Assembly (NCBI GenBank): GCA_016779125.1
Contig: JADHOF010000001.1
Span: 120-64,119, forward strand
DNA length: 64,000 nucleotides
Direction of reading: 5' to 3'
From: Verrucomicrobiia bacterium
GTDB lineage: Bacteria > Verrucomicrobiota > Verrucomicrobiia > Limisphaerales > JAYPXF01
Under the pieces are notes generated by a model. The model saw only the letters and a program-made list of their open reading frames with translations, had not been told where the DNA came from and did not search any database. This document shows positions 46,245 to 64,000 of the stretch, in pieces. A program made the translations under genes and the position numbers. The stretch's first letter is position 1. Every line of letters begins with the position of its first letter.

Positions 46245-46249
46245 CTTGA

Positions 46250-46798
46250 TCAGAATTCGGAGACTTCAAACTCCGACTCGAACCAGATGCCGTTGAATTC
46301 GAACTGGATGATCGGCGGATCAAAACGACCCAGGTACCAGGTCACGTCGTTTCGCGGCTGGAGCTCCCGCAACACCTCCTCGGTCATTTCCTCGTCCAAG
46401 GACAAGAATCGATACCGGTTCTGCCGCAAACCGTCCTTCTTCATCCGGCGTTTCAGATCCTCCGTCTCGGCGCGGAGCGAACGGACAATCCACACCTCGC
46501 CGTTATGCACCTTGACCGCGAGTTTGTTCAGTTTCTTGGTGTCGCATTCCCCGCATTCAGCCCAGAACGCCGGCTCCATTTGATAGTCCAGCTGCACCAG
46601 GTCGGGAACAAAGGGGATGTAATCATCATGCAAAGCCGTCTGCATCTGGATCCGTTCGCGGAACAGGATCAGGTACCCGAACAGGCGTTGCAGGACCACC
46701 CGCTCGTCCTCGTCCAGGGACTGCACGACGATGATCTTGGTAGGCAGCTCGCGCTGACGTTCCTCACTACGTAGATTGAAGACGTACTTGATGACCAT
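46250..46798 (-). CDS. YaeQ-like protein (PD-(D/E)XK-fold family), tentative
   Basis: 182 aa. By eye the layout resembles E. coli YaeQ (DERVVLQRLFGYL vs ERMMLRLLAWL; FWAECGECD..KLNKLA vs LWIELGLPD..RIKKA). This was not verified by search. Confidence 0.45.
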   Translation of the reverse strand: MVIKYVFNLRSEERQRELPTKIIVVQSLDEDERVVLQRLFGYLILFRERIQMQTALHDDYIPFVPDLVQLDYQMEPAFWAECGECDTKKLNKLAVKVHNGEVWIVRSLRAETEDLKRRMKKDGLRQNRYRFLSLDEEMTEEVLRELQPRNDVTWYLGRFDPPIIQFEFNGIWFESEFEVSEF

Positions 46799-46814
46799 GG
46801 CCGCCCCCCCGGGC

Positions 46815-48107
46815 TCACGGGCCGACGTAAACGGGCATCTCCTTCGTCACCAACTTGAGTAGATGCGAGGCATCCCAGTTCGCGAGACGGAAACAGCCGT
46901 GTGATTCCGTCCGCCCGATTTTTTCAGGTACCGGCGTGCCATGAATTCCATACCCCGGCTTGTCGAGACCGATCCAAGCGGTCCCGACGGGATTATTCGG
47001 GCCCGGAGGAATGGTCAACTTCGTTCCCAAACGTCTGGCCTCCTCAGATTCCGGGAAATTCTCGGGATCAAAGGTATAGTTGGGATCGACCGCGAAATTC
47101 GCCACCCTCAGTTCGCCCACCGGCCGCTTCTCGACCTTTGCTGCAATGCTGCAGGGGAAGTGGGCCAACAGGTTCGATCGCGCGCCAAAAGCCTGCAAGG
47201 TCCGATTCGTCAGGCTGATTCGCAGGAATGCCGCCTTCTCCTCGGGCTCGGGATATTGAATCAGCGGCACCTTCACCCGGTCGCCGACCCGGACCTTGCG
47301 CCAGTCCATTTTGGGGTTTAGCTGCTCGATAAATCGGGGATACGCGTGGCTCTTCTCCGCCACCAATTCAAGAACGCTCTCATACCCCAGCAAATCCTGC
47401 CCCGACTTCGCCATCCATGTCTTGCCGACCGTCCTCAAATTTGCCACATCATTGGACCCCACCACATAGCTCGTGTAAGGAGGCAGATTCAGAATCAGAC
47501 GCGACTTGGTTCTCAAGTCCGGCTTTCCGTTTATCTCCAAACCCTCTCGTTCCTGAAACGCCTTGATCGCCGCAGTGGTCTGTGGTCCCGACAGACCGTC
47601 AAGAATCCCCGGCGAAATCGCCATTCTGGAAAGCGCGATCTGCACATCGAAGGTCGACCACGCGGAGCGGGGCTTAAACACATCGTCCGCCAAAGAATTC
47701 ACGTTTTCCGCCGCCTTCGTCACGGTGGAGGGCTGGGATGGAATCGGCACAGGCTTCGCGGAGACGTTTGTATCCGTTGCCGCCACAGGCGGAGGCAACG
47801 GGGCGGGCGCAAGATTCCGCAGCGGCGGAGGCGGTTCCGGCAGGGTTCCAAAATCGAGGCTCGAAATCGGCTTCGGGGGCGGGTTCACCTTGGCTGGTTT
47901 CGCGGATTCCGTCACCCCCGCGTCCCGTTTGACAAAGCGCTGCAAAGGAGCGGGCAACGCGATACGGCCCGTCTTCCCCGCCCACCAACTCGCGCCGATC
48001 AACAGGACAAGAAGAAGCAACAAAGCTCTCCACGAGCCCCGCTTCTTGGGTGCGGAAGCAGTTTGCGGCTTGTATCGCGTGTATATTCTTTGTTTTCGCT
48101 TGGCCAT
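46815..48107 (-). CDS. L,D-transpeptidase (YkuD) with a PG_binding_1 domain
   Basis: GPQTTAAIKAFQEREGLEINGKPD and the catalytic segment GIHGTP....GRTESHGCFRL. Confidence 0.85.
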   Translation of the reverse strand: MAKRKQRIYTRYKPQTASAPKKRGSWRALLLLLVLLIGASWWAGKTGRIALPAPLQRFVKRDAGVTESAKPAKVNPPPKPISSLDFGTLPEPPPPLRNLAPAPLPPPVAATDTNVSAKPVPIPSQPSTVTKAAENVNSLADDVFKPRSAWSTFDVQIALSRMAISPGILDGLSGPQTTAAIKAFQEREGLEINGKPDLRTKSRLILNLPPYTSYVVGSNDVANLRTVGKTWMAKSGQDLLGYESVLELVAEKSHAYPRFIEQLNPKMDWRKVRVGDRVKVPLIQYPEPEEKAAFLRISLTNRTLQAFGARSNLLAHFPCSIAAKVEKRPVGELRVANFAVDPNYTFDPENFPESEEARRLGTKLTIPPGPNNPVGTAWIGLDKPGYGIHGTPVPEKIGRTESHGCFRLANWDASHLLKLVTKEMPVYVGP

Positions 48108-48218
48108 TACGGCGGAAGTGGGGATTCAATTGAAATACGGCCCCCGGCGCAATGTGTTTTCGCGGCGGGGCGGGTGCTTGACCTGCCTAGGTGGCCACCT
48201 ACTATCGCGGCGCGTTTT

Positions 48219-49181
48219 ATGAGAATTTGGCTGATCACATGGTTGCTACTCGGCTCGGGACTCCTCTCCCGTGCGGCGGATTCGCCGCAGCTGCTCAATG
48301 GAATCGTGGCCATCGTCAACGACACCGTCATCACGGAGAACGAAGCCCGCGAGTATATCGAACCCGTGATCGACTTCCTCAAGGAACGCCACCGCAACAA
48401 TTCGGGAGCCTTCCAGGAGGAAGCCATGAAGGCCTACCGCGACGGCTTGAACCAACTCATCGAGCGGCAGCTGATGCTGGACGATTTTAAGAAGGCCGGA
48501 TTCAACCTGCCCGAGCGCTTCATCGAGGACTTCGTTCAGGAACGCATCCGCGAGCAGTATGGAGACCGCTCGCGCCTCATCAAGACGCTGGAGGAACGCG
48601 GACGCTCCTACGCCGAATTCCGACAGGAAATCCGCGACCAATTCATTGTGGAGCAGATGCAAAACTTCCATATCTCCTCCGCGATCATCGTGTCCCCCGC
48701 CGACATCGAGAAATACTACCGCGAACACATCAAGGACTACCGCCTGCCGGACCAGATCAAGCTCAGCATGATCGTCCTCAACAAGCAGGAAGGCGCGGAC
48801 AATTCCGGCATCGAAGCGCTCGCGACCGAAATCCTGAAAAAGATTCGCGGCGGGGCGGACTTTGCCGAGATGGCAAACATCTATTCGGAAGGATCACAGC
48901 GAACCGAGGGCGGCGACTGGGGTTGGATCGAGACCAAGGTCCTCCGCGAGGAACTCGCCAAAGCCGCGAGCCTGCTCAAGGCCGAAGAAGTCGGCGAGGT
49001 GATCAACACGCCCGACGCCGCCTACATCATGCGCGTCGACAAAATCCGCATCGCCTACGTCCGCCCCCTTCATGAGGTTCGGGCTGAAATCGAAAAAACG
49101 CTGAAGGCCGAGGAGCGCAAACGTCTTCAAGACCAATACGTCTCACGGCTTCGCAAGAAGGCTTTCATCCGCTTTTTCTGA
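48219..49181 (+). CDS. SurA/PrsA-like parvulin-type peptidyl-prolyl isomerase, secreted
   Basis: Signal peptide MRIWLITWLLLGSGLLSRA, SurA_N-like IVAIVNDTVIT, and the parvulin region GGDWGWIE. The start is ATG 48219, not ORF-track 47346. Confidence 0.8.
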   Translation: MRIWLITWLLLGSGLLSRAADSPQLLNGIVAIVNDTVITENEAREYIEPVIDFLKERHRNNSGAFQEEAMKAYRDGLNQLIERQLMLDDFKKAGFNLPERFIEDFVQERIREQYGDRSRLIKTLEERGRSYAEFRQEIRDQFIVEQMQNFHISSAIIVSPADIEKYYREHIKDYRLPDQIKLSMIVLNKQEGADNSGIEALATEILKKIRGGADFAEMANIYSEGSQRTEGGDWGWIETKVLREELAKAASLLKAEEVGEVINTPDAAYIMRVDKIRIAYVRPLHEVRAEIEKTLKAEERKRLQDQYVSRLRKKAFIRFF

Positions 49182-49200
49182 CCCCGCGCGGCGGCTCCCG

Positions 49201-50178
49201 ATGAGGGCGTTCACAACCATCGCCGCCAACACCTTCCTTGAGCTGGTCCGGCAGCCGGTCTTCCTGTTGCTTAGCACGGCCACAACCTCCTTCATCATCA
49301 TTCTCGCCGGCATGCCCTACTTCGGGTTCGGTGAGGACGCCAAGCTGGTTCGCGACAGTTCGCTCGCCATCACCCTGTTCGTGGGACTCCTGGCTGCCGT
49401 GGTCGCGGCCTCCTCCGCCGTGGCCGGCGAACTCCGGACTGGCACCGCCCTCGCCGTCCTGTCCAAACCCGTCCCCCGCGTCGCTTTCCTGCTGGGAAAA
49501 TACTGTGGCATCGTCGCCGCCGTCTGGCTGCTGGCCTTCACGAACCTTCTCGCCTCCCTTCTCGCAAGCCGCATGGCCTATGATGCCTACGGCGACGCCG
49601 ATACGCTCGGCATCGCGGTCTTCTTCGGGGCCATCGCCCTTTCCTTCCTTTTCGGAGCCTTCACAAACTACTTCCACAGGCGAAACCTGTCCGGCGACGC
49701 GTTCCTCTCACAGGTCATCCTTGTCACCGGCGTCTTTCTCATCCTCACCTTCGCGGTCGAACTCAAACATCCCGGCCAATCCGCCGCCCAAACCGTCGAT
49801 TGGCGACTGCTCCCGGCCGGTGCCCTGATTCTCTTCGCACTGCTGCTTCTCAGCGCCATCGCGCTGGCCTGTTCCACGCGATTGGACACCGTGCCCACCC
49901 TCATCGTCTGCACGATCATCTTTCTCGCCGGCCTCGTGAGCGACTACGCCTTTGGACGCCCCGCAGAGCAGGGAGCCTGGTGGGCCGCGATCACCCACGC
50001 GATTCTGCCCAACTGGCAGCTTTTCTGGATCACCGACGCCATCCAGTCGGACCGCACCCTCGACGGCATCTGGCGCTACGTCGCCAAAACCGCGATCTAT
50101 CTCTCCGCCCATATTGGCATCGCGCTCGTCGTGGCCTATTCCCTCTTCGAAAACCGCGACCTCGCGGGTGATGCCTAG
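49201..50178 (+). CDS. ABC-2/NosY-like integral membrane permease
   Basis: Polytopic membrane protein with the GELRTGTALAVLSKPVPRVAFLLGKY motif typical of ABC-2 permeases. Confidence 0.65.
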   Translation: MRAFTTIAANTFLELVRQPVFLLLSTATTSFIIILAGMPYFGFGEDAKLVRDSSLAITLFVGLLAAVVAASSAVAGELRTGTALAVLSKPVPRVAFLLGKYCGIVAAVWLLAFTNLLASLLASRMAYDAYGDADTLGIAVFFGAIALSFLFGAFTNYFHRRNLSGDAFLSQVILVTGVFLILTFAVELKHPGQSAAQTVDWRLLPAGALILFALLLLSAIALACSTRLDTVPTLIVCTIIFLAGLVSDYAFGRPAEQGAWWAAITHAILPNWQLFWITDAIQSDRTLDGIWRYVAKTAIYLSAHIGIALVVAYSLFENRDLAGDA

Positions 50179-50289
50179 TCGCCTAAAATTGAACATCCCA
50201 AGGCGAAGCCCCTCCAACACCGGATTGCCGAGCTCCATTCCGGGCTCGCGCATCCCTCACAATCCGCCTACTTTGGCCCACTCAGCACC

Positions 50290-51510
50290 ATGATCGATCT
50301 GACCGAAAACATCGAAAAACAGCCTGCCTCGACCCCGACGGACAACCGCGAAAACGTCGTTTCCGTTCGTGCTTTGAGCAAAGTCTTCAAAGATTTCTGG
50401 GGCCGCCCGAAAGCCAAGGCTGTCAACGACGTCAGCTTCGAGATCAAGAAGGGCGAAGTCTTCGGCCTGCTCGGCCCGAACGGTTCAGGCAAGTCCACCA
50501 CGATCAAAATGTTGCTGGGCCTGCTCAATCCCACCAAGGGATTCATCGAGATTTTCGGCCACTCCCCGCGCCACGTGAAGACCAAGGAACGCATCGGCTA
50601 CCTGCCCGAGGAATCCTACCTCTACAAATACCTTGATTCCCGCGAGACGCTCGACTTCTTCGGCAACCTCTTCCAGCTCCACTCGGAGGAGCGCGCGAAA
50701 CGCGCCGAACAGCTTCTCGAAATGGTCGGCCTCAATCAGGTGCGCAGCCGCACCGTCGGCGAGTTTTCGAAAGGCATGCAGCGTCGTATCGGCCTCGCCC
50801 AGGCGCTCATCAACGACCCCGATCTCGTCATTCTGGACGAGCCCACCGCCGGCCTGGATCCCATCGGCTGCCGCGAGGTCAAAGATCTCATCACCGCCCT
50901 CGCCAACCGCGGCAAGACGGTCATCATTTCCAGCCACCTGCTCTCCGACGTCGAGGATGTCTGCGACCGCGTCGTCATCTATTACGGCGGCAAGATCCAG
51001 GCGATGGGCACGCTCAAGGAACTCCTCACCGAGCGCGAAACCGTCCGTCTCACCCTGCCCACGCTGCCACGCGAAAAAATGGATCAGGTTCTCGCCATGA
51101 TCCGCAAGGATGTCGCCGAAGACCGCATCCAGATCGACAACCCGACGCAGAACCTCGAAAGCTACTTCCTCGGCGTCGTCAAGCGCGCCCGCGAAAACGA
51201 GCAGCAAACCTCCGGCGCAACCTCAGGCAGCACCGTCGCCCACTACCTTCGCGAAGGGGGCGAGGAAAAGGATCAGAAGGCCAAAATCCTCGACCGCCTC
51301 GCCGCCGATCTGGCACCGACACCGATCGCCGAGCTGCTGGAAGAGAAACCCGCCACCACCGAACAAAAACAGGACGCCAATCTTGCCAGCCTCGCGGAGG
51401 CGGAAGCGCCAAAACCCGTCGCACCCGTCGTCTCCAAAGCCGCCGAACGAAAAGCGTCCGACGAAAAGGCCGACGACAAACTCTCCTCCCTCCTCGGCGG
51501 CGACAATTGA
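50290..51510 (+). CDS. ABC transporter ATP-binding protein (ABC-2 type) with a roughly 100-aa low-complexity C-terminal tail
   Basis: GPNGSGKSTT, FSKGMQRR and ILDEPTAGLD motifs. The tail is rich in A/E/K/P. Confidence 0.9.
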   Translation: MIDLTENIEKQPASTPTDNRENVVSVRALSKVFKDFWGRPKAKAVNDVSFEIKKGEVFGLLGPNGSGKSTTIKMLLGLLNPTKGFIEIFGHSPRHVKTKERIGYLPEESYLYKYLDSRETLDFFGNLFQLHSEERAKRAEQLLEMVGLNQVRSRTVGEFSKGMQRRIGLAQALINDPDLVILDEPTAGLDPIGCREVKDLITALANRGKTVIISSHLLSDVEDVCDRVVIYYGGKIQAMGTLKELLTERETVRLTLPTLPREKMDQVLAMIRKDVAEDRIQIDNPTQNLESYFLGVVKRARENEQQTSGATSGSTVAHYLREGGEEKDQKAKILDRLAADLAPTPIAELLEEKPATTEQKQDANLASLAEAEAPKPVAPVVSKAAERKASDEKADDKLSSLLGGDN

Positions 51511-51552
51511 TCCGCACCCGGGGAACCGCGCGACATTGGGGCATCCGGCGTC

Positions 51553-52944
51553 ATGAAAGGATATGACGCGCTTCCTAAAAGCTGGCAGCCGGTTCTTTCC
51601 GTCGCTCGTCTGACGTTTCGGGCGGCGACCCGGTTTCGGGTGGTGCAGTTTCTTGTCCTCCTGCTGCTGGCGTTGGTGGTTTCCCTGCCGCTGGTTCTCA
51701 AGCACGACGGCACCGCGCTCGGCCTCGCGCGCATCGTCATCACCTATTCACTCGGTTCGATCATCACGATCCTTGGATTCTCGACCCTGTGGCTCGCGGT
51801 GGGCAATCTCGCGCGCGAGGTGGAGGACGGGCAGATGCAGATGCTCGCGGTGAAGCCCTTGGCCCGATGGAAGATCCTGTTTGGCAAATGGCTCGGCATC
51901 ATGGCGGTCAACACGCTGCTGCTGGCCGTCAGCGCCACGGCCGTGGGATCGCTGCTGAATTATCGCTCCCGACAACTCAACGCCGACGAACGACAGATTC
52001 TGACCGAACAGATCCTCACCGCGCGGGCTCCGCATCGCGCTCCGACGCCGGACTTCGACGGCATGGCGCGTGAACAGCTCGAAGCCTCGGTCGCCGAAAA
52101 CCAGCCGACCGAATTCGATCGACCAAGCGTGCTCGCGAAGATCCGGGCGGATCTGCTCGCCCGCCACGAGGCGGTGCTGCCGCAATACGTCCGACAGTGG
52201 AAGATTCCCGGCTCCACGACCGACAGGCCCGCCATGCTGCGCTTGAAGTTTCGCACCGCGCGCGGCGTGCACGAGCCGGTTCGGCTTCCGACCGCTTGGA
52301 TCTTCGGCGAAATCAATTCATCGAACCACGTCCGCCTCGAGGCTGTGCTGACCACGGACACGTTTCACGAATTGGCCGTTCCGCCCGACCTCGCCGACAC
52401 GGATGGACTGTTGCCCGTCCACTTTGTCAATCTGACCGGCGAGACCGTCGTCTTTGACCTCGCCGACGGCCCCGAGCTGCTCGTCCCGGAGGCGGGCTTC
52501 CCCATCAACCTGCTGCGGGCGTTCGCCATCTTGTATTGCTGGCTCGGACTCGCCGCCGCGCTCGGACTCGCCGCCGCCTGCCGGCTCAACTTCAACGTCG
52601 CCGCCTTCTTCGCCGTCAGCGTCCTGCTCATCGGAACCTTCGACGGCACCATCGCGGACGTCTCCGAGCGCGGCTCCGTCTGGAACATCCCCGAACCGGA
52701 ACTCGTCACCACGGCGCACCGGGTGACGGACTGGCTGTTGGTGCCGATGATCCGGTTGCTCGACTTTCTGCTCGGCGCCATCACCAACTACTCGCCCATC
52801 GAATCCCTGAGCCTCGGTCGCAGCGTTTCCTGGACACAGGTGGCCGCGGCGTTTGGGCAATGCTGGCTCGGCTTCGGCGGACTGCTCGCCATCGTGGCCA
52901 TCACCGCGTTCAGCCGGCGCGAACTCGCCAACCCCGACTCATGA
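51553..52944 (+). CDS. ABC-2-like membrane protein with a roughly 200-aa extracytoplasmic insert
   Basis: EVEDGQMQMLAVKPLARWKILFGKWLG motif and multiple TM helices. It is a paralogue of 63321-64000. Confidence 0.6.
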   Translation: MKGYDALPKSWQPVLSVARLTFRAATRFRVVQFLVLLLLALVVSLPLVLKHDGTALGLARIVITYSLGSIITILGFSTLWLAVGNLAREVEDGQMQMLAVKPLARWKILFGKWLGIMAVNTLLLAVSATAVGSLLNYRSRQLNADERQILTEQILTARAPHRAPTPDFDGMAREQLEASVAENQPTEFDRPSVLAKIRADLLARHEAVLPQYVRQWKIPGSTTDRPAMLRLKFRTARGVHEPVRLPTAWIFGEINSSNHVRLEAVLTTDTFHELAVPPDLADTDGLLPVHFVNLTGETVVFDLADGPELLVPEAGFPINLLRAFAILYCWLGLAAALGLAAACRLNFNVAAFFAVSVLLIGTFDGTIADVSERGSVWNIPEPELVTTAHRVTDWLLVPMIRLLDFLLGAITNYSPIESLSLGRSVSWTQVAAAFGQCWLGFGGLLAIVAITAFSRRELANPDS

Positions 52945-54806
52945 GGCGCGCGATTTTCAAACCCGTTCTGCTCGGCGCGTTGGTGATCGCGTTGCTGGTG
53001 GTCGGCTCGGTCACACAACGTTCGCTCAACAAGGACCGCGCACGACTTCAGTTGACGGCACAGCTTCCCCTGGACAACGCCCCGCCCGCCCTCGCCTTCA
53101 CCACCGTGGCGTTGGGTGGATTTCGCGGTCTGATCGCGAACGCGCTCTGGCTGCGCGCCAGCGAACTGCAGGAGCAGGAAAAGTTTTTCGAACTCATCCA
53201 GCTCGCCGACTGGATCACCAAACTCCAGCCCCGCTTCCCCACCGTCTGGTCCTTCCTTTCCTGGAACCTCGCCTACAACGTCTCGGTGAAATTCCCCGAC
53301 GACGCCTCCCGTTGGAAATGGGTGCGCGAAGGCATGGTGCTGCTGCGAGACGAGGGTCTCCGATACAATCCCGGCGAGGCCGATCTCTATCACCGGCTCG
53401 CCTATCTCTTCCAACACAAGCTGGCCGATGATCAGGACAACGCCCACCAATTCTACAAGGCCGCCTGGAAAGCCGAGATGGAGCAGCTGCTCGGTCGCGA
53501 TCATCCCGACTGGAAAGCGCTGATCAATCCAGCCACGGAAGAAGAGAGAATCCGCTCGCGCCGCGTCCGGGAAGAATATCGGATGGACCCCGAATTCATG
53601 CGCGAGATCGATCGCCGATACGGTCCGCTCGAATGGCGCCTGCCGGAATCCCACGCGGTTTACTGGGCGGCCTACGGTCTCGAGCACACGCGCACCAAAC
53701 GCCCGATCGACCTTCGCCGCGTCGTCTATCAAAGCCTGCAGACGGCGGTTCATCGCGGCCGCCTGATCGATTACCCGGAAGACGGGGGCTTCGAGCTTGC
53801 CCCGAATCCGGCGCTGATCAGCGCCGCCCACGAAGCCTATCTGGAAATGAAGGGCAAGGATCCCGATCTGAAGAGCAACATCGGCGACGCCCACAAAAAC
53901 TTTCTTCTCTACGCGGTAACCCTGCTGGACGGCGAGGCCCGAAAGGTCGAGGCGGCCAGATGGTTTCAATACCTGAAGGAGCAATATCCAGAAGCTGTCG
54001 CGGAATACGCGGACTATCGCGATTTCATTCAACGCCGCGTCGTCGAGGACGCCTTGCAAGGCGGACCGGACAAGATTCGCCGCGTCCTTCGCGCGCTCAT
54101 GACAAGCCACTTCCGCTACCTCGCCCTCGGTCAGGGAGATCTCGCGACCCTGATGCTCGAAAAATCACGGCACGTTCGCGAAGCCTACGAAAGACGATTC
54201 CGTCAGGCGGATCAGGAGCGCGTCCAGATTCCTTCGCAGAAAAAACTTCGCGAGGAGGTGCTGAAGGAAAAACTGTCCAATCGACCGCCGCTCGGCTTTT
54301 CGGACCCGATGGCACTCCGGCTTTGCACGATCTTGCAAATTCCGTTTCCCGCCTCGGAACGGGCCTCGTCCACGACGCCCCGTTTGAATCCCGGCACAAA
54401 CTCCTTCGCCGCTCCGACACGCGAGGCAAACGAGGCCTTTCTTAAAACAAACGCCCGTCAGCCCGACATCGAGGGAACCGAGCTGGGACTGCAATGGAAG
54501 ATCTTGAAACACGGCACAGGAAAACTTCCGCGCCCGGACAGCATCGTCCGCGTTCACTACACCGGCCGCCTGATCAACGGTTCGGTTTTCGACACCACGC
54601 GCGACTCCGGAAAGCCCGCCGAGTTCAAACTCGATTCCGTCGTCAAAGGCTGGCGTGAAGGACTTCTGCAAATGAGGGAGGGCGGACATCGCCTGCTCTT
54701 CATCCCGGCCCGGCTCGCCTACGGGGATCAGGCGCACGGCGCGATCCCTCCCCACAGCACGCTGATCTTCGACATCGAACTCCTGGAGGTGACAAATGGA
54801 AACTGA
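52941..54806 (+). CDS. Uncharacterised membrane-anchored helical protein ('ALGGFRGL' family) fused to a C-terminal FKBP-type PPIase
   Basis: N-terminal TM helix, conserved LAFTTVALGGFRGLIANALWLRA...WITKLQP, and a C-terminal FKBP fold (VRVHYTGRL.NGSVFD...GW.EGL..M..G....L.IP..LAYG). Its ATGA start overlaps the previous stop. Confidence 0.7.
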   Translation: MRRAIFKPVLLGALVIALLVVGSVTQRSLNKDRARLQLTAQLPLDNAPPALAFTTVALGGFRGLIANALWLRASELQEQEKFFELIQLADWITKLQPRFPTVWSFLSWNLAYNVSVKFPDDASRWKWVREGMVLLRDEGLRYNPGEADLYHRLAYLFQHKLADDQDNAHQFYKAAWKAEMEQLLGRDHPDWKALINPATEEERIRSRRVREEYRMDPEFMREIDRRYGPLEWRLPESHAVYWAAYGLEHTRTKRPIDLRRVVYQSLQTAVHRGRLIDYPEDGGFELAPNPALISAAHEAYLEMKGKDPDLKSNIGDAHKNFLLYAVTLLDGEARKVEAARWFQYLKEQYPEAVAEYADYRDFIQRRVVEDALQGGPDKIRRVLRALMTSHFRYLALGQGDLATLMLEKSRHVREAYERRFRQADQERVQIPSQKKLREEVLKEKLSNRPPLGFSDPMALRLCTILQIPFPASERASSTTPRLNPGTNSFAAPTREANEAFLKTNARQPDIEGTELGLQWKILKHGTGKLPRPDSIVRVHYTGRLINGSVFDTTRDSGKPAEFKLDSVVKGWREGLLQMREGGHRLLFIPARLAYGDQAHGAIPPHSTLIFDIELLEVTNGN

Positions 54807-55173
54807 ACCGAATCGTCTGATCACGGAAGCCGAGAAGGTTGTGACTCAAACCTTGGCGCAGCTCCCGGACGAACTGCTAGAAACCGCGCTCGCGGTTTCG
54901 GTCTCATACGAGGGGCAACCCGATGCCGCGTTGATCGCCGAAGGCATCGACCCGGGCACGCTCGGTCTCTTCACAGGCCCGGATCGAGCGGAGCATGAAG
55001 GCGCGCTGGATCCCTTTCCTCCCCAAATCACGATCTTCGTTGAAAACCTTTACCTCTTCGCCGGCTACGACGAGGAAATCTACCGGGACGAGGTTCGCAC
55101 AACCTACCTCCACGAGTTGGGCCACTACCTTGGCCTCGATGAAGAAGATCTGACCGCGCGTGGTCTGGAGTGA
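54796..55173 (+). CDS. Small zincin-like metallopeptidase-family protein (DUF1025-like)
   Basis: HELGHYLG motif near the C-terminus, 125 aa, 11-nt overlap with the upstream gene. Confidence 0.65.
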   Translation: METEPNRLITEAEKVVTQTLAQLPDELLETALAVSVSYEGQPDAALIAEGIDPGTLGLFTGPDRAEHEGALDPFPPQITIFVENLYLFAGYDEEIYRDEVRTTYLHELGHYLGLDEEDLTARGLE

Positions 55174-55188: not shown

Positions 55189-55914
55189 TCAGGCGAACTG
55201 CTTCTTCACCCAGGCGGTCACCGCATCCACCATCGGCTGGCAATGTTCGCCGGCGAACACGTGATTTGACCCCGCGAGTTCGATGAATTCGGCATTGCTG
55301 CCCGCCTTGGCAAGAATGTCCCTCGTGTCCTGAATGAGCACAACGTCGTCCTCCGTGCCATGAATCAGCAGCCAAGGCACCGCGATCTTCGATCCCCGTT
55401 CCACAACGGTGTCGATACCACGCAGATCCGCCATGTAAGCGGACGAAAGCGGACAGTCCTCGTCATCCCACATCAATCCTTTGTCCGGCTCCACATCGCC
55501 GAACTCCGTCTCGGCAAATTTCTTCGTGCTCACCATGCCCGCCAAAGAAACAAGCTGGCGAATACGCGGGTCCTCGCTTGCGCGAATCACACCGACCGCG
55601 CCGCCCATGCTGTGCCCGACAAAGCAGACTTCACGATCCCCCAAGGCATCGATCACCGCACCCAGATCGCCCACCTCTTTCGTGATCGTGCAATCGGTGA
55701 ACCTGCCTTCGGAATCACCATTTCCCGCAAAAGAGAAACGCAGCGCGTTGATGCCGGCGGCCGCCAGTCCTTCCGCCAGTGCCACCACGAAGGGACGATC
55801 CTTGTTGCCCGTCACCCCGTGCCCGATGACAACAACCTTCTTCGAAGCCCCGTTTCCCTCGTGGTAGGTGAAATCAATCTTTTCACCCTGCTCGTTGCGA
55901 ATTTCGGAAATCAT
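55189..55914 (-). CDS. Alpha/beta hydrolase
   Basis: GHSMGG nucleophile elbow and HG...D acid/His region. The start is taken at MISEIRNE. Confidence 0.75.
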   Translation of the reverse strand: MISEIRNEQGEKIDFTYHEGNGASKKVVVIGHGVTGNKDRPFVVALAEGLAAAGINALRFSFAGNGDSEGRFTDCTITKEVGDLGAVIDALGDREVCFVGHSMGGAVGVIRASEDPRIRQLVSLAGMVSTKKFAETEFGDVEPDKGLMWDDEDCPLSSAYMADLRGIDTVVERGSKIAVPWLLIHGTEDDVVLIQDTRDILAKAGSNAEFIELAGSNHVFAGEHCQPMVDAVTAWVKKQFA

Positions 55915-55963
55915 GGCGGCTCTTGTATCGACAGCCTCCGGCACCGGCCAGCAAAATCCCGGC

Positions 55964-58279
55964 ATGACAGAGACTCCCGCCGTCACGCCCGCCGAAACAA
56001 CCCTGCCCCGGGCGCATTGGCGAATGTCCGCGCCGGCGGAGAATCATCTGCGCATTCAAACCGCGACCAAGGCGACGCATCATCGCAACCATTCCTGGGC
56101 CATCGAATTCATCGCTCAAACAGCTGAACCGCCTCAACCGGTCATTCGCTCCGAAAATCTGTCCGTCGAAACACCCGCCGCCGCCTGCAATCTCGATCCC
56201 AAAGCCGCCCGGTTGCAGCTGCGGTATCATGCGAGGCATCCGCCGCTGGCGATCGAATCAATCCGAACCGGCCCAAAAACATCCGTGTTCGAGATTCCCC
56301 TCGGCAAGGAGGACACGGTCTACGGTCTCGGGCAGGGCACGGGGACGCTGAACCGCCGCGGGCAGAAGAAGGAGCTTTGGAACATCGACGTGCTCGGACA
56401 CGCGTCCTGCATCCATCCCAACCTGCGGAGGCTCTACCAGTCGATTCCGTTCGTGATCATCCTGCGGGACGGATTCGCGACCGGTCTGTTTGTCGATGAT
56501 CCGGGCCGCCAGATCTGGGATCTTTCCGAAGACCGCGTGCGCGTCGAATCCCACTTCAAGGCCTTGGATCTGCATCTTTTCACGGGCCCGACCGTTCCTT
56601 CCGTCCTGGCGCAATGGACATTCGCGACCGGCCGCATGCCGATGCCGCCGCGATGGGCCTTGGGCTATCATCAATCTCGCTACAGCTACGGAAGCCGGGA
56701 AGAACTGGAGAAGATCGCATCCGAGTTTCGGCAGCGAAAAATCCCGTGCGACGGACTGCACCTCGATATCGGTCACATGGACGGCTACAGAGTGTTCACA
56801 TTCGGCAAAGCCTTTCCAAAGCCGAAGGAGATGCTCGCCGGACTCGCGGCCGACGGCTTCAAGGTGTCCGCCATTGTTGATCCCGGAGTAAAGGACGAGC
56901 CAAAGTTCCCCGTCCGCCAGCGGGGCCTCGCCGCGAACGCGTTCGTCAAATCCCGCTCGGGCGGAAACCAACGAGGCAAGGTTTGGGCGGATCGCTCGCT
57001 GTTTCCTGACTTCTTCTCAGCAACAGCGCGGGCGTGGTGGGGCAGCGAGCAGGCCCGATTTCAAAAGCTGGGTCTGGCCGGTTTTTGGAATGACATGAAC
57101 GAGCCCGCGATCTTCGACGGTCCCGGCAAGACGCTGCCCGAGGATTCCGTGCATCAAACCGACAACGGGCGCCACCGTCATTGCGAACTTCACAATGCCT
57201 ACGGCACCCAGATGGCCGCCGCGTCGCGGGCGGGGGCCTTGCTGCACGATCCCGATGCCCGACCGTTCATTCTTTCGCGCGGAGGCTGGGCAGGCATCCA
57301 ACGTCATTCCGCCGTGTGGACCGGTGACAACAGCTCGTGCTGGGAACACCTTGCCGAATCAATCCCGATGTTGCTCAACCTCGGGCTCAGCGGCGTTCCT
57401 TTTTGCGGAGCCGACGTCGGCGGATTCCTCGACGATTGCACCGGCGAGCTGTTGGTGCGATGGACGCAGCTCGGCGCCTTCACACCCTTCTTCCGGAATC
57501 ATTGCAACAACGATTCACGCCGACAGGAACCCTGGACTTTCAGCCCGGAGGTCGAATCGATCTGCGGGGCGTTCATTTCCCTCCGCTACCAGTTGATGCC
57601 CTATCTTTATGCCCAATTCGCCCGGGCAAAGCGGGACGGCACACCGATCATGCGTCCCCTGCTCTGGCAATGGCCGACGGATCCGATCGCCGCCCGCTGC
57701 TCAGATCAGTTTCTGCTCGGCCCCGACCTGATGATCGCACCGATCTTACAAGCGGATGCCGCCGCGCGCTGTGTCTACCTGCCCGCCGGCACCTGGCATT
57801 CCTTCCTCACCGGCGAAACCTTCGAAGGAGGACAACACATCGCCCAGCCGGTTTCCCTGGCAGGCATTCCGATCTACGTCCGGGGCGGCGGACTCATCCC
57901 GATGGTACCGCCGCGCCAGTTCATCGATCACCGGGAGTCGGATGAGGAGATCCTGCTGCACGTCTACCTGGGCGGGCGGGGACACTTGGACTGGCACGAA
58001 GACGACGGGTGGTCGACCCGATCAAAACGTAAGCACACCCATTCGCGGATCATCGAGCTGACCGACCTGGGAGATCGAGGGTTCCTGCGCTTCGGTTCAT
58101 CCGAGGGCGGTCGAAAAAGCTCGGTCAAACTCTGGCACATCGCGCTTCACTGCATGGACGAGGCGTTTTCATTTACCGCCAACGGCAACGAATTCGAGCC
58201 CCAGTTCGACGAGGAGGACGGCAGTGTCCGCTTCGCTTTGGAGAATCACGGTGAAGAGTTCGAAATCCGCTGGGAATGA
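55964..58279 (+). CDS. Glycoside hydrolase family 31 (alpha-glucosidase-like)
   Basis: GFWNDMNEP catalytic signature and WTGDN. The start is uncertain (55913, 55964 or later). Confidence 0.85.
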   Translation: MTETPAVTPAETTLPRAHWRMSAPAENHLRIQTATKATHHRNHSWAIEFIAQTAEPPQPVIRSENLSVETPAAACNLDPKAARLQLRYHARHPPLAIESIRTGPKTSVFEIPLGKEDTVYGLGQGTGTLNRRGQKKELWNIDVLGHASCIHPNLRRLYQSIPFVIILRDGFATGLFVDDPGRQIWDLSEDRVRVESHFKALDLHLFTGPTVPSVLAQWTFATGRMPMPPRWALGYHQSRYSYGSREELEKIASEFRQRKIPCDGLHLDIGHMDGYRVFTFGKAFPKPKEMLAGLAADGFKVSAIVDPGVKDEPKFPVRQRGLAANAFVKSRSGGNQRGKVWADRSLFPDFFSATARAWWGSEQARFQKLGLAGFWNDMNEPAIFDGPGKTLPEDSVHQTDNGRHRHCELHNAYGTQMAAASRAGALLHDPDARPFILSRGGWAGIQRHSAVWTGDNSSCWEHLAESIPMLLNLGLSGVPFCGADVGGFLDDCTGELLVRWTQLGAFTPFFRNHCNNDSRRQEPWTFSPEVESICGAFISLRYQLMPYLYAQFARAKRDGTPIMRPLLWQWPTDPIAARCSDQFLLGPDLMIAPILQADAAARCVYLPAGTWHSFLTGETFEGGQHIAQPVSLAGIPIYVRGGGLIPMVPPRQFIDHRESDEEILLHVYLGGRGHLDWHEDDGWSTRSKRKHTHSRIIELTDLGDRGFLRFGSSEGGRKSSVKLWHIALHCMDEAFSFTANGNEFEPQFDEEDGSVRFALENHGEEFEIRWE

Positions 58280-58321
58280 ATTTAGCTATTCACGACCGGA
58301 GCCGATTTCTATCTTCACCCC

Positions 58322-58801
58322 ATGGATGAGCTTTTGAAACTACTGCGACGGGATTCCTCGCTGACTCCCGACCAGATCGCGCCGATGCTCGGCATGTCGG
58401 AGAGCGACGTCACCTCCAAGATTCGGACATTGGAGGAGAACCATACGATCCTCGCCTATCACGCCGTGTTGAATGAGGAAAAGCTGGACGTGGACGAGGT
58501 GCGCGCGGTGATCGAGGTGAAAATCACACCCGAACGCAGCGGCGGCTTCGACCGCATCGCGGAGCGGATCGCCCGCTACAGCGAGGTCAGCGCGTGCTAT
58601 CTGATGTCCGGCGGTTACGACCTCATGGTCGTCGTCGAGGGCGACAATCTGAAGAAGGTCGCGGGTTTCGTGTCGGAGAAGCTCGCCACCATTCAAGGCG
58701 TCCTCTCAACGGCAACCCATTTCATGCTGAAGACCTACAAGCAGCAGGGTGTGCTCATGCACGGGGAGAAAAACGAGGAACGCCTCGCCGTCAGTCCTTG
58801 A
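58322..58801 (+). CDS. Lrp/AsnC-family transcriptional regulator
   Basis: N-terminal HTH (LTPDQIAPMLGMSESDVTSKIRTLEE) followed by a RAM/ACT-like domain. Confidence 0.9.
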   Translation: MDELLKLLRRDSSLTPDQIAPMLGMSESDVTSKIRTLEENHTILAYHAVLNEEKLDVDEVRAVIEVKITPERSGGFDRIAERIARYSEVSACYLMSGGYDLMVVVEGDNLKKVAGFVSEKLATIQGVLSTATHFMLKTYKQQGVLMHGEKNEERLAVSP

Positions 58802-60589: not shown

Positions 60590-60593
60590 ACGC

Positions 60594-60761
60594 TCAATCC
60601 TCCTCCGTGTTCTCGCGTTTGCGTTTCGCGACGGCCCGCTTCAGAATGAACTCAATCTGCCCGTTCACGCTCCGCAGCTCGTCCTCGGCCCAGCGTTCGA
60701 GCTCTTTCCACAGCTTTGGATCCATCCGCAGCAGAAAGGATTTCTTTCCCGGCGAAGCCAT
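60594..60761 (-). CDS. Arc/MetJ-type ribbon-helix-helix DNA-binding protein (55 aa, not in the supplied ORF track)
   Basis: My own translation is MASPGKKSFLLRMDPKLWKELERWAEDELRSVNGQIEFILKRAVAKRKRENTEED*. It shows the beta-strand / helix / S.N..I..IL helix pattern of Arc-like RHH proteins. It starts 1 nt after the SPFH stop. Confidence 0.6.
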   Translation of the reverse strand: MASPGKKSFLLRMDPKLWKELERWAEDELRSVNGQIEFILKRAVAKRKRENTEED

Positions 60762-60762
60762 C

Positions 60763-61704: not shown

Positions 61705-61716
61705 TATGCAATCAAA

Positions 61717-61785: not shown

Positions 61786-63324
61786 CTACTTTTTCGACGG
61801 GGCCAATGCCCTGTTTGGTTGGATTTCCGTTTTCGGCTGGTTATTCCTGCCGACGTCGAATTTCTTTTCTTCCTCGAGGTTGTCGACCACTTCTGCCCGA
61901 AGTTCCTTACGCCAGTCTTCCGGCAGGCCGAGCGCAATGCGAAGACGCTCGGCCATCAAGTCGTTGAACATTCCCTGACCGCTGAGGCAGTTCACCAGAA
62001 CGGCGGTACGAATCTGTTCGTAGCTGGAAAGTCCCTGAACGGTCTTCATGTAATCGGACAGCAGTCGCTTGTGATAGGCGTCGTAGGCTTTCTTCGCGAA
62101 CTTGGCGTGCCCTTGCGCCCGTTCCCCGTCACCGAGCGCCAAGTAGTAGAACGACTTGCCGAGATACGCCTCGACGATGGCCTTATTCTTATAGGGTGTG
62201 GCGGAGTTGACCTGCTTCTGGATCCGAAGCAGCACAAAGTCTTCCAACGGCATGTCCCTCACCCAGGTATGCCCCTCAGGAAAATGGGTCCGCAAATACT
62301 CGTACCACATCTTGGCGTCCTCGACGCGGTTGTGAAGGTATAGGAAGTAGACCGCGTCGTGCAGAAAGAATTCCTGTCCTCTCCCCACGTAATCGTCCTT
62401 TTCCGGAACCAGCTTCTTGATCTTCTCGTAGGTCATGTTGACCTTTTCAATGATCTTGATGTTCGGACTGAACTCCACCTGCCCCGTGTGCGGATTTGCG
62501 TCAACCGTGCCCCGCTGGAAGGCTGAAAGCATGGACTGCCACAGAATCCGGTAGATCACGATCGGATCGCCCGTCTTGGCCCGCTTCATCCCCACAACTG
62601 ACCAGTAAATCGCATGGGTCTCAGGTAGGCGCCAATCAAGTGGTCCAAACTCGTTGTCCGTCTCCCGAACAATCTCAACCTCCATCTTGAACGAGTTGGT
62701 CAACAAAGAGGCCATCCTGCGATCCTGATCCGTCTTCGGATTCAGGAATCGCTCATAATCGGGCCGCCCGTCAGGAAACACCTCGTTCATCCAGCCAAAG
62801 AAAACGCGCTTGTAGGCGAAGTGTGTCCGATCCCCAAATCGGCCGATCTTGTCGAAGAACAGCCAGCCCAGCTCGCGGTACATCTCGGTGTCCGTCGGAT
62901 TGTATCGAAGCCCGTCGTCCCGGAGCATCTTGATCCCGCTCCAAACCCATCGCCAACGATCCGCCGGGTCATCAAATGTCCGAGAGATATTGTAGGACAT
63001 GTTCCAAGCCTGGAAGCGCCAGACAGGGGTGAATGTCGGCTGAAGCTTCGTGATCCAATCGCCAAGCGTCAGCGTTTCGAAATACTTTCCTTCCTGCTGA
63101 AGCTGGTTCGATCGCAGAAACAGAAAGTTCACGATCAGTCCGCGAAACCCGCCCAAGGCGACCGTTGAGAAGGCAAGGACAGGCGGCGCGTTTTCCAATG
63201 GCTCCAACCGGGTCAGGCCAAGCGTTTCGCGTTGGTTGTTCAACCCTTGCTGGTTCCAGGAATTGACCGTCAAGGCAAGCACCGCCAAGACCATCAGGAT
63301 CTTCTTGTAATGGCGTCCTGTCAT
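61786..63324 (-). CDS. Paralogue of the 'ALGGFRGL' helical protein (no FKBP domain)
   Basis: It aligns by eye with 52941-54806 over about 480 aa (LAFSTVALGGFRGLIVNFLFLRS...GDWITKLQPTFTPVW...LRDDGLRYNP...GPLDWRLPETHAIYW). Confidence 0.7.
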   Translation of the reverse strand: MTGRHYKKILMVLAVLALTVNSWNQQGLNNQRETLGLTRLEPLENAPPVLAFSTVALGGFRGLIVNFLFLRSNQLQQEGKYFETLTLGDWITKLQPTFTPVWRFQAWNMSYNISRTFDDPADRWRWVWSGIKMLRDDGLRYNPTDTEMYRELGWLFFDKIGRFGDRTHFAYKRVFFGWMNEVFPDGRPDYERFLNPKTDQDRRMASLLTNSFKMEVEIVRETDNEFGPLDWRLPETHAIYWSVVGMKRAKTGDPIVIYRILWQSMLSAFQRGTVDANPHTGQVEFSPNIKIIEKVNMTYEKIKKLVPEKDDYVGRGQEFFLHDAVYFLYLHNRVEDAKMWYEYLRTHFPEGHTWVRDMPLEDFVLLRIQKQVNSATPYKNKAIVEAYLGKSFYYLALGDGERAQGHAKFAKKAYDAYHKRLLSDYMKTVQGLSSYEQIRTAVLVNCLSGQGMFNDLMAERLRIALGLPEDWRKELRAEVVDNLEEEKKFDVGRNNQPKTEIQPNRALAPSKK

Positions 63325-64000
63325 GACCCCCCTCCCTGCAGGCCCGCCAATTCCCGCCGATTAAAAAGATAGATTCCGCTCACCGCCATCAGTCCGCCCA
63401 GCAGAAAGACCTGTTTCAGAAAAGCCCCTCCAACCGTGCCCCAGGAAACACTTCTGCCCACACTCAAGTCCGAGATGGGGGACGCCCCTTGGGCGAGACT
63501 CACGATTTTGTGAAGCCCCTTGAAGATTGGCAGGATATAGGGGTCGATGACCGCCGTGGTCCGTTTGCCGGTTTCGTCATCAATGTCCCCGATCGTCCTC
63601 TGTTCGACAATCGTCGTAAGCAGGCCTCCCGACATGAAGACGATGAGAATTGTGATCGTGAGGAAGGAGGCGACGGGCAGGGTCAAAAAGGCCGAGGCCG
63701 CCAACCCCACAGCCGCAACAGTCGCGAGCCAGAACAGAATCACAAGCAGGCCGCGCAAATAGTTCACCTCGAACGACCCCTGCGGATAGAGAACCTCCAA
63801 CTGATCGGTCAACGGAAACCGCAGCGTTCCCCGGCTGTAATTCCAAGCCTCGAGGCGCAACACGCCGTCCTTGGTAATCGCCTTTCCCGGAATCTCGATC
63901 TCGCGATAGGCGTTATGAATCATCTCCACCTCACGGGCATAGTAGCCTCCACCCCCGTCCGCATCCCCAGCGACCCACCGGACCGTGTAGACCTGATTGT
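63321..64000 (-). CDS. Paralogue of the ABC-2-like membrane protein 51553-52944 (5' end outside window)
   Basis: The frame stays open upstream of ORF-track GTG 63929 to the window edge. The C-terminus LSVGRSVSWGTVGGAF...FNRRELAG matches LSLGRSVSWTQVAAAF...FSRRELAN. Confidence 0.65.
   Translation of the reverse strand, partial: NQVYTVRWVAGDADGGGGYYAREVEMIHNAYREIEIPGKAITKDGVLRLEAWNYSRGTLRFPLTDQLEVLYPQGSFEVNYLRGLLVILFWLATVAAVGLAASAFLTLPVASFLTITILIVFMSGGLLTTIVEQRTIGDIDDETGKRTTAVIDPYILPIFKGLHKIVSLAQGASPISDLSVGRSVSWGTVGGAFLKQVFLLGGLMAVSGIYLFNRRELAGLQGGGS

Follow-up and report, generated by a model that had tools for sequence, protein, structure and literature searches.

Several described systems resemble, each in part, the locus analyzed here. 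NosDFY(L), the ABC-2 mechanotransducer that acts in the maturation of nitrous-oxide reductase, carries a large extracytoplasmic accessory protein that sits on the permease, and its ATP hydrolysis serves periplasmic maturation, not nutrient uptake. In the gliding motility of Bacteroidota, GldA/GldF/GldG and the FKBP lipoprotein GldI are an example of one envelope process that uses both an ABC-2 transporter and a peptidyl-prolyl isomerase (PPIase) of the FKBP type. PpiD/YfgM at SecYEG and the periplasmic chaperone-PPIases of the FkpA/Mip/SurA type share a layout in which a membrane anchor at the N-terminus, a chaperone-like helical module and a PPIase at the C-terminus lie next to a membrane translocase. 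LapB (YciM) is a TM-anchored TPR adaptor that works with FtsH, and eukaryotic ABCA lipid exporters have type V/ABC-2 TM domains and large extracytoplasmic domains.

The module described here, at positions 48219-55173 of a 64,000-nucleotide stretch of DNA from a Verrucomicrobiia bacterium (the window), shares traits with each of these systems but coincides with none. Like NosDFY(L), it has a PF12679 permease, a NosF-like ATPase and an accessory protein. However, this accessory protein is a TM-anchored TPR-like solenoid and not a beta-helix, NosL and NosZ are absent, and the two permeases, one of them with a probably periplasmic insert, resemble a heterodimer; neither matched NosY in the PDB at E values up to 10. 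GldA is the second-best NCBIfam match of the module ATPase, yet all four Gld models scored far below their cut-offs (e.g., GldA 208/403, GldF 21/289, GldI 18/158), no GldG-type ABC_transp_aux domain is present, and the phylum is a different one. The layout of PpiD/YfgM and FkpA/Mip/SurA recurs in the helical protein of the module, but there the helical part is an unrelated solenoid, TPR-like and about 430 residues long, an ABC-2 transporter takes the place of Sec as partner, and most family members have no PPIase. With LapB the helical protein has the single-pass anchor and the TPR-like domain in common, and the canonical operon encodes HflK/C-like proteins, which are modulators of FtsH; it has, however, neither a sequence or top fold match to LapB nor a rubredoxin domain. 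ABCA proteins are the best match of the nucleotide-binding domain (NBD), whereas the module consists of separate bacterial half-components, has its insert after TM3 and not between TM1 and TM2, and includes an additional solenoid subunit.

An ORF check of the window placed all six genes on the + strand exactly where the earlier note had them, and this check together with Pfam and NCBIfam searches bore out its spacings and domain calls (Table 1). A gap of 19 nt separates the SurA-like gene from perm1, the helical gene (52941-54806) overlaps perm2 by ATGA, so that the two products are probably translationally coupled, and the zincin gene, with its HELGH motif, overlaps the helical gene by 11 nt.

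Table 1 Features of the module and of the second operon in the window
Feature	Position	Strand	Description
Sigma-70-like promoter match	48178..48205	+	TTGACC, 16 nt, TACTAT; divergent intergenic region; 13 nt 5' of the SurA-like ATG
SurA-like parvulin PPIase, 320 aa	48219..49181	+	Signal peptide, SurA_N, one parvulin domain (Pfam, NCBIfam)
perm1, ABC-2 permease, 325 aa	49201..50178	+	PF12679 (ABC2_membrane_2), 30.3 bits, cut-off 27.2
ABC ATPase, 406 aa	50290..51510	+	PF00005 (ABC_tran), 118.7 bits
perm2, ABC-2-like permease, 463 aa	51553..52944	+	PF12679, 35.2 bits, residues 69-131
Helical protein, N-terminal part, residues 1-476	52941..54368	+	TM helix, basic linker, ALGGFRGL helix, TPR-like alpha-solenoid
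FKBP PPIase domain, C-terminus of helical protein, residues ~494-618	54420..54806	+	Mip/FkpA/FklB-type; PF00254
Zincin_1 minimal metallopeptidase-like protein, 125 aa	54796..55173	+	HELGH; PF06262, 56.4 bits
Additional SPFH/Band 7 protein, 313 aa	60763..61704	-	Downstream of hel'; PF01145, 91 bits
hel', paralogous helical protein without FKBP, 512 aa	61786..63324	-	38% identical to the FKBP form
perm2' (3' part; gene leaves the window)	63321..64000	-	Second operon

As a unit, however, the six genes are not conserved, and comparison of related loci retains only the ATPase, perm2 and the helical protein. Among 90 related loci (denominators 83 for perm2, 75 for the ATPase, 68 for the P-type ATPase and 62 for SPFH genes), the usual arrangement is an 8-gene operon of perm1, three HflK/C-like SPFH genes, a P1B ATPase with a CPC motif, the ABC ATPase, perm2 and the helical protein. 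The order of the last three exceeds chance, because the ATPase recurs upstream of the helical gene in 71 of 75 loci and perm2 directly 5' of it in 81 of 83, Lentisphaerae included; these genes are the invariant core across Verrucomicrobiota and relatives. In Lentisphaerae and other distant members, the pair of perm2 and the helical protein even persists alone. The CPC-motif P1B ATPase lies directly 5' of the ABC ATPase in 55/68 loci, and at least three SPFH genes are found in 48/62. perm1, which is 52% identical to the perm1 of a related locus (L016) and 46% identical to perm1' of a second operon, is orthologous to the gene that opens the canonical operon, and the cluster is a trimmed, lineage-specific paralogue without SPFH and P-type genes.

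This second operon lies about 7 kb from the cluster on the opposite strand, with SPFH and P-type genes and without an ABC ATPase. Beyond the window, a P1B ATPase, three SPFH genes and perm1' come ahead of perm2', again with no ABC ATPase; the full operon is visible in one related locus (L087), and the ATPase-less layout recurs in two others (L093 and L094, 59% identity). The two operons are complementary, one having the ABC ATPase but no SPFH or P-type genes and the other the converse, and this division is stable in relatives. In this lineage the single ABC ATPase gene probably also serves the second operon. The three HflK/C-like proteins, the P1B ATPase and the paralogous operon had been missed in the earlier list of partners.

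The helical protein could not be assigned to any characterized family from the letters of the DNA, and this still holds after Pfam, NCBIfam and PDB sequence searches, which gave no match for its N-terminal part, and after Foldseek on the predicted structure. AlphaFold2 models (pLDDT 86.1 and 87.7, pTM 0.81) contain a TPR-like alpha-solenoid of about 20 helices and one beta-hairpin, for which Foldseek against the PDB returned generic TPR matches only (E of at least 2e-3, TM-score of at most 0.31). The protein defines a large family without annotation or prior description. At 50% identity its members fall into about 2,700 clusters, and the species that have it, from Verrucomicrobiota, Lentisphaerae and Kiritimatiellae, number at least 596. 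A TM helix (residues ~4-24) and a conserved basic linker are followed by the most conserved segment of the family, the invariant ALGGFRGL helix (residues 49-78, nt 53085-53174), with VALGGFRGL at residues 56-64.

Its FKBP_C match (Pfam PF00254) spans residues 530-615 with 93.4 bits. The domain is 42-44% identical to the Mip FKBP domains of Legionella and Trypanosoma cruzi at an rmsd of about 1 A, and 43% identical to FKBP12, of which it keeps Y26, F36, D37, V55, W59, Y82 and F99; the active site looks intact. The fusion reaches well beyond one strain. Of the 251 homologues sampled, 57 carry it, and in the NJ tree these fall into two to three neighboring blocks, a distribution that suggests a clade of FKBP-fused forms; the fusion also occurs within full canonical operons (L002, L003, L008, L090). 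As about three quarters of the sampled family have no PPIase, prolyl isomerization cannot be the core activity.

The ABC ATPase is the best-conserved gene of the module (60-80% identity across related loci) and ends in a low-complexity tail of about 100 aa rich in A/E/K/P/S. The nearest solved NBDs are NBD2 of ABCA4/7/3/1 (E 1e-64), followed by NosF (6e-47). For perm2 there was no PDB sequence match, and its similarity to ABC2_membrane_2 is confined to the TM2-TM3 part. The external insert, first put at roughly 200 aa, is by hydropathy and charge counts a loop of 182 aa after TM3; it is probably periplasmic, since the K/R-rich N-terminal tail of perm2 implies that the loop should face outward.

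Our best guess is an extracytoplasmic client-handling role for the module. We give a probability of about 0.4 to the whole of this preferred reading, in which a paralogue of the conserved transporter core carries a solenoid platform that handles extended clients. perm1 and perm2 would form a heterodimer driven by two copies of the ATPase, and the helical protein would use its TM helix together with the glycine-rich, invariant ALGGFRGL helix to dock to perm2. Solenoid and perm2 insert might together build an extracytoplasmic platform binding extended clients of the transporter. The groove of the TPR-like fold and the fusion to a prolyl isomerase would make polypeptides the most likely clients. 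ATP hydrolysis could drive export or, as in NosDFY-type or FtsEX-type ABC mechanotransducers, mechanical work on the platform. Neither the literature nor characterized homologues offered support for any function of the module. The envelope protein-folding machine proposed earlier is among the possible interpretations. HflK/C-like proteins and the CPC P1B ATPase, the partners normally encoded with the core, instead suggest metal handling or quality control of the membrane.

The NBD likeness to lipid-transporting ABCA proteins speaks against polypeptide clients and indicates a non-protein substrate. A lipid, glycolipid or polysaccharide could be exported or flipped, with the solenoid as docking or hand-over adaptor and the FKBP domain, where present, aiding only the assembly of the machine or an unrelated partner. 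This is in line with the typical cargo of ABC-2 (type V) transporters, which is lipids and glycans, with the lack of any PPIase domain in most family members and with the invariant solenoid residues, among which W, Y, N, R and H are frequent, as they are in sites that bind glycans. We nevertheless consider it unlikely: no gene for a glycosyltransferase, for lipid synthesis or for polysaccharides occurs in the conserved operon, the fold search matched TPR-like superhelices and neither (alpha/alpha)-toroid enzymes nor lipid-binding folds, and the FKBP fusion is old and was kept across its clade.

The extracytoplasmic placement in the preferred reading depends on how the helical protein is oriented in the membrane. 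TM1 has positive charge on either side (net +2.1 and +1.7), the ALGGFRGL helix is hydrophobic (KD 1.4-1.6), and the two could pair as a hairpin and put solenoid and FKBP domain in the cytoplasm. There, the protein might be an adaptor of the LapB/YciM kind that connects the transporter with membrane quality control of the FtsH/HflKC type and, for instance, binds the long charged, acidic tail of the ATPase, with the zincin in the same compartment. E. coli FklB is cytoplasmic, and an FklB-type model (PRK11570) is the best NCBIfam match of the FKBP domain; HflK/C-like genes are the usual neighbors, and the zincin gene overlaps the helical gene and encodes no signal peptide. However, the second helix contains invariant Arg and Asn, and its unfavorable insertion energy (about +5.9 kcal/mol by a crude Hessa-scale sum) favors a single-pass anchor with an external domain. 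The hairpin would moreover leave a 25-residue loop with 3-4 K/R in the periplasm, contrary to the positive-inside rule, LapB is not among the fold matches, and the zincin is not conserved, which makes the adaptor improbable.

Equally doubtful is a NosDFY-like delivery of metals or cofactors, in which the P1B ATPase would export metal, the ABC-2 mechanotransducer would, by moving the helical protein, load metalloproteins of the periplasm or membrane, and the FKBP copy would be a derived offshoot: the CPC-motif neighbor, NosF as nearest bacterial solved homologue of the ATPase, the inclusion of NosY in the Pfam family of both permeases and a homologue fused to ApbE (NosX family) point that way, but a NosD-like beta-helix, NosL and nosZ are all missing, the permeases lack the NosY match noted above, the helical protein invariants hold no evident Cys, His or Met metal-binding motif, the copy at 48219-55173 has lost the P-type ATPase, and the ApbE fusion, seen only once, on a 3.9-kb contig where the helical part is truncated, may be an artefact.

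The bracketing of the module by two PPIase families and a peptidase, on which the earlier note had built its proposal, is mostly a local accident, because the zincin was found in 0/90 related loci and the adjacency of SurA is inseparable from general synteny. The zincin, with 27 D/E against 6 K/R, is probably cytoplasmic, given this acidity and the lack of a signal peptide, and seems to be a bystander outside the conserved system. The SurA-like gene starts at an internal ATG of a longer ORF (47346-49181), whose upstream stretch overlaps a divergent YkuD gene; orthologues have 316-320 aa. Its product scored 74.7 bits against the SurA equivalog model (NCBIfam cut-off 394), and its N-terminal sequence, MRIWLITWLLLGSGLLSRA/ADSP, resembles a Sec signal peptide; the protein is predicted to be periplasmic and outside the conserved core. 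Among the 90 loci, SurA adjoins the module only in L081-L083 (61-66% identity) and not in L089 (51% identity). In L081-L083 the YkuD, YaeQ and ABC genes upstream are conserved as well, which leaves the adjacency indistinguishable from general synteny. The SurA-like gene may still share a transcript and cooperate with the module, though not as a conserved part. Within the cluster, no terminator-like sites above chance were found. The sigma-70-like match is the sole one in 7.5 kb, which equals chance expectation (mean 1.1), and is suggestive by its position alone.

The cluster in the window (copy A) is a trimmed paralogue of an uncharacterised operon that is widespread among Verrucomicrobiota and relatives. 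The proteins of the window and those of the operon at the related locus L016 were compared by tblastn with 90 related loci, and the denominators given here count the loci with enough flank. The gene for the helical protein has perm2, the second of two ABC-2-type permease genes, directly upstream in 81/83 loci; an ABC ATPase gene (71/75), a P-type ATPase gene (55/68) and three or more SPFH genes (48/62) lie near it. The usual operon has eight genes, encoding perm1, an HflK-like protein of ~620 aa, an HflC-like protein, a further HflK-like protein, a P1B ATPase of the heavy-metal type, the ABC ATPase, perm2, and the helical protein. It stays intact at only 32-39% identity (L084, L085) and also occurs with helical proteins that bear an FKBP domain (L002, L003, L008, L090). 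The P1B ATPase of this canonical form carries a CPC motif in TM4 and has no N-terminal metal-binding domain; in the copy at L087, the last TM holds an unusual 'MHNAGS' that replaces the usual Cu- or Zn-type motifs. One of the HflK/C-like proteins has an N-terminal extension of ~300 aa with no Pfam match (L016, L084, L085, L090). The conserved gene trio consists of the ABC ATPase, perm2, and the helical protein. In L089 (51% identity) the FKBP form sits in this bare trio, and in Lentisphaerae and some others the perm2-helical pair alone remains adjacent. As far as could be found, there is no earlier description of the near-fixed linkage between the helical family and the trio of HflK/C-like proteins plus P1B ATPase.

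The window cluster departs from the canonical eight-gene layout in that the SPFH and P1B genes are absent between perm1 and the ABC ATPase. The gap between these two genes measures 111 nt, and tblastn detected no SPFH or P-type remnants in the cluster. The same genome encodes a second, paralogous operon (copy B), whose gene for the helical protein hel' has perm2' upstream, truncated by the end of the window, and a further SPFH gene downstream. On the contig, the whole of copy B comprises perm1', three HflK/C-like SPFH genes, a CPC-motif P1B ATPase, perm2', hel', the fourth SPFH gene, a small RHH_5 gene, and a gene for a 160-aa protein with two TMs. No ABC ATPase gene lies between the P-type ATPase and perm2' on this contig, and the same ATPase-less layout is found in a lineage at 59% identity (L093, L094). 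One genome thus holds two complementary derivatives: in copy A the ABC ATPase is retained and the SPFH and P-type genes are lost, whereas the reverse is true of copy B. Given this complementarity, the single ABC ATPase would serve both copies. Nothing links the genes located between the two operons to the ABC/helical system. Envelope biogenesis in Verrucomicrobiota and relatives is poorly understood, and the canonical operon, which is conserved and probably important, is therefore a concrete target. The window itself represents a natural experiment, with two complementary, partly degenerated copies in one genome, one of them fused to a prolyl isomerase.

Positions of the two operons, their surroundings and selected features of related loci
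Sequence	Position	Strand	Feature	Remarks
Window	42175-44757	+	Secreted-looking protein, 860 aa	DUF7133, HEAT_2 and C-terminal cytochrome c domain
Window	44652-48107	minus	L,D-transpeptidase (YkuD and PG_binding_1, 430 aa), YaeQ-family protein (182 aa), soluble double-NBD ABC protein (530 aa)	Block divergent from SurA-like gene; syntenic in L081-L083
Window	48219-55173	+	Copy A cluster
Window	49201-50178	+	perm1
Window	51553-52944	+	perm2	Length compared with L081, L090, P0434, P0446, P0473
Window	52941-54806	+	Helical protein with C-terminal FKBP domain
Window	55189-60443	minus, +, +, minus	Alpha/beta hydrolase (265 aa), GH31 glycosidase, Lrp/AsnC regulator, DUF3887 and alpha/beta-hydrolase protein	Between the two operons
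Window	60107-64000	minus	Copy B operon	Convergent, ~7 kb from cluster
Window	61786-63324	minus	hel', 512 aa	No FKBP; 38% identical to the FKBP-bearing helical protein
L087	1734-13218		Copy B operon
L016	1016-7198		Canonical operon with three HflK/C-like proteins and P1B ATPase
L004	11446-15675		Helical gene and downstream genes
L092	5143-11362		Helical gene and adjoining ABC cluster	Kiritimatiellae
L081	8208-10004		perm2
L090	8137-9999		perm2

All six ORFs described by the earlier note were found in place on the plus strand and with the spacings it gave, and its domain calls were borne out by Pfam and NCBIfam. With a uniform G+C of ~0.6, the base composition of the window gave no sign of a horizontally acquired island. 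The ABC ATPase matches ABC_tran (PF00005) at 118.7 bits (cut-off 25); its NBD is ABCA/NosF-like and is followed by a charged, low-complexity tail of ~100 residues. Both permeases match PF12679 above the cut-off of 27.2 bits, perm1 at 30.3 bits and perm2 at 35.2 bits, with the perm2 match confined to TM2-TM3. At the level of Pfam families, the module is accordingly predicted to be an ABC-2 (type V) transporter. A crude hydropathy scan places a loop of 182 residues after TM3 of perm2, which should face outward because the N-terminal tail of perm2 has six K/R residues. The perm2 gene overlaps the helical gene, and translational coupling of the two is probable. At 463 aa, the perm2 of the window is without the N-terminal DUF2628 extension (~135 aa) of the longer perm2 (595-620 aa) that partners many FKBP-type helical proteins.

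The SurA-like protein at the start of the cluster has a signal-peptide-like N-terminus, a SurA_N region and a single parvulin domain, with Pfam scores that all exceed the cut-offs (PF13624 48.3, PF09312 37.6, PF00639 57.2 bits); it did not reach the threshold of the NCBIfam SurA equivalog NF008038 (74.7 vs 394 bits). Its start at 48219 is an internal ATG within a longer ORF, and it is nevertheless the correct start, because the upstream part of this ORF overlaps the divergent YkuD gene and because orthologues have 316-320 aa. The zincin at the other end retains HELGH and matches Zincin_1 (PF06262) at 56.4 bits (cut-off 22.4). The interpretation in the earlier note is partly supported: the genes behind the proposed frame of two PPIases plus a peptidase are real, but together they do not make a conserved unit. 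By tblastn, the zincin was seen in 0/90 related loci and is a bystander, and the SurA-like gene adjoins the module in only 3/90, every one a close relative, so that this adjacency is without support from loci lacking shared synteny. Only relatives at 61-66% identity retain the order SurA-perm1-ATPase-perm2-helical-FKBP; their upstream genes (YkuD, YaeQ and double-ABC) are likewise syntenic, whereas downstream one of them has a sulfatase gene and the other an acetyltransferase gene. The arrangement is thus mostly local. A gene resembling that of the 860-aa DUF7133 protein is also present close to the operon in L081 and, in L090, at the edge of the locus.

The earlier note could not place the helical protein in a characterised family, and this holds for a family that is both real and conserved. 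Residues 1-490 yielded no Pfam, NCBIfam or PDB sequence match with either the single sequence or the family profile, and the profile retrieved nothing from the PDB sequences even at E = 10. More than 3,000 matches were obtained among the scored candidates of a 90%-identity database, all named 'hypothetical' unless named for the FKBP domain; the family amounts to 2,702 clusters at 50% identity (E <= 1e-3). It is present in at least 596 species genomes, nearly all from Verrucomicrobiota of Limisphaerales and Pedosphaera type, with distant members in Lentisphaerae, Victivallales, Oligosphaeraceae and Kiritimatiellae, and is restricted to Verrucomicrobiota, Lentisphaerae and Kiritimatiellae. A full-text search of the literature found no description of the family or its operon. 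AlphaFold2 modelled the full-length protein with confidence (pLDDT 86) as an N-terminal TM helix, a low-confidence basic linker, a motif helix, and ~20 helices with one beta-hairpin. The motif helix, with the invariant pattern P-P-x-L-x-F...G-G-F-x-G-x-I-x-N ('ALGGFRGL'), is the best-conserved segment of the family. Because a Foldseek search of the PDB with the full-length model returned FKBP/Mip matches only, the helical part was remodelled separately (pLDDT 87.7, pTM 0.81), and this model retrieved only weak matches to TPR superhelices (E >= 2e-3, TM-score <= 0.31), including the OGT TPR domain, designed consensus TPR proteins and Tom70/71. Pfam TPR repeats were not detected in the helical protein of the window, and any given TPR model matched 1-2 of 34 relatives, always at E >= 0.0098. 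The model depicts the helical protein, whose family is undescribed, as a putative TPR-like alpha-solenoid. An (alpha/alpha)-toroid polysaccharide lyase or hydrolase was also considered, since many of the invariant residues are W, N, Y, R or H, and was dropped as no toroid enzyme was among the fold matches.

The FKBP domain occupies the last ~125 of the 621 residues and matches FKBP_C (PF00254) at 93.4 bits (cut-off 21.1). Its model aligns with truncated Legionella Mip at a TM-score of 0.92 (Foldseek), and the domain is 42-44% identical to the Mip FKBP domains of Legionella and Trypanosoma cruzi, with superposition at ~1 A. Compared with the FKBP12 sequence, 8/10 pocket residues are kept (Y26, F36, D37, V55, I56(V), W59, Y82, F99) and two are changed (R42 to S, F46 to A). 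The domain is thus a predicted FKBP-type PPIase with conserved active-site pocket residues. The fusion is genuine and, as is apparent from its presence in 57/251 sampled homologues (>=430 residues), not specific to this strain. Its carriers form two to three adjacent blocks in the neighbour-joining tree built from the helical domain, which indicates a probably old fusion with a few losses. The prolyl isomerase is the sole functional hint for the whole helical family.

ABC-2 transporters with extracytoplasmic accessory proteins are already known, as in NosDFY, GldAFG and FtsEX. Membership in NosDFY is ruled out, as the NosD beta-helix partner, nosZ and nosL are absent from the window cluster and related operons, and perm1 and perm2 had no PDB match to NosY at E <= 10, their likeness to it being at the level of the Pfam family only. 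The GldAFG/GldI gliding-motility system is likewise ruled out by scores below the Gld equivalog cut-offs (GldA TIGR03522 207.8 vs 402.6, GldF TIGR03518 21.2 vs 288.5, GldI TIGR03516 18.4 vs 157.6 bits) and by the lack of a match to the GldG-type ABC_transp_aux (PF09822) in the cluster proteins. The FKBP domain scored below the equivalog cut-offs for FkpA (NF008150, 106.6 vs 215 bits) and BamJ (NF053689, 94.5 vs 100 bits). Judged by sequence, the cluster belongs to none of the specific groups compared, namely Nos, Gld and the SurA, FkpA and BamJ equivalogs. The nearest functional likenesses, neither of them a homology, are to NosDFY, as an ABC-2 mechanotransducer with a periplasmic accessory protein, and to the anchored chaperone-PPIases of the PpiD/FkpA type.

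One tempting proposal, to which we give a probability of only about one in eight, is an extracytoplasmic chaperone or foldase powered by ATP and built from the helical protein, perm2 and the ABC ATPase. The extracytoplasmic compartment has no ATP, and a mechanotransducer would pass cytoplasmic ATP energy to a TPR-like client platform, to which FKBP and SurA were added in this lineage; the canonical form would belong to a so far undescribed supercomplex of the envelope, specific to Verrucomicrobiota and relatives, with an HflK/C-type SPFH cage and the P1B ATPase. In the broader reading that we prefer, though at less than even odds, perm1 and perm2 would constitute a heterodimeric ABC-2 transporter, on which the helical protein docks at perm2 via TM1 and the glycine-zipper-like ALGGFRGL helix. 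The solenoid would then handle extended clients outside the membrane, while ATP drives export or mechanical work. The same transporter could instead act on a non-protein substrate. A Nos-like system for metal or cofactor delivery is another candidate. A third alternative, a cytoplasmic LapB-like adaptor to FtsH/HflKC, would place the solenoid on the other side of the membrane. The positive-inside rule gives no answer here because both flanks of TM1 are basic, and across 282 homologues neither charge bias nor a Hessa-scale sum pointed clearly to one topology. The motif helix is hydrophobic, yet has an invariant Arg and Asn and an unfavourable crude insertion energy, and a lipobox-like N-terminus was found in only one homologue. 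We lean towards a periplasmic solenoid platform, at somewhat better than even odds. Should this platform lie in the periplasm and bind polypeptides, it would exemplify ATP-coupled handling of proteins beyond the cytoplasm.

A homologue of 692 aa on a 3.9-kb Logan contig (P0153) joins a truncated helical domain to a full ApbE flavin-transferase domain (PF02424, E 9e-85); on this single short contig, the fusion could be an artefact of gene calling or, if real, a hint of cofactor maturation in the periplasm. In several canonical loci (L004, L014, L036, L052, L065), the helical gene is followed by genes for a TPR and LysM protein, an uncharacterised 266-aa protein, another ABC ATPase, and an ABC_tran_2 (PF16949) protein, which may constitute a further linked envelope ABC system. 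In the Kiritimatiellae locus L092, the helical gene follows a DUF2851 gene, not perm2, and is divergent from an adjoining GldA/GldF/GldG-like ABC cluster (ABC_tran, ABC2_membrane, ABC_transp_aux).
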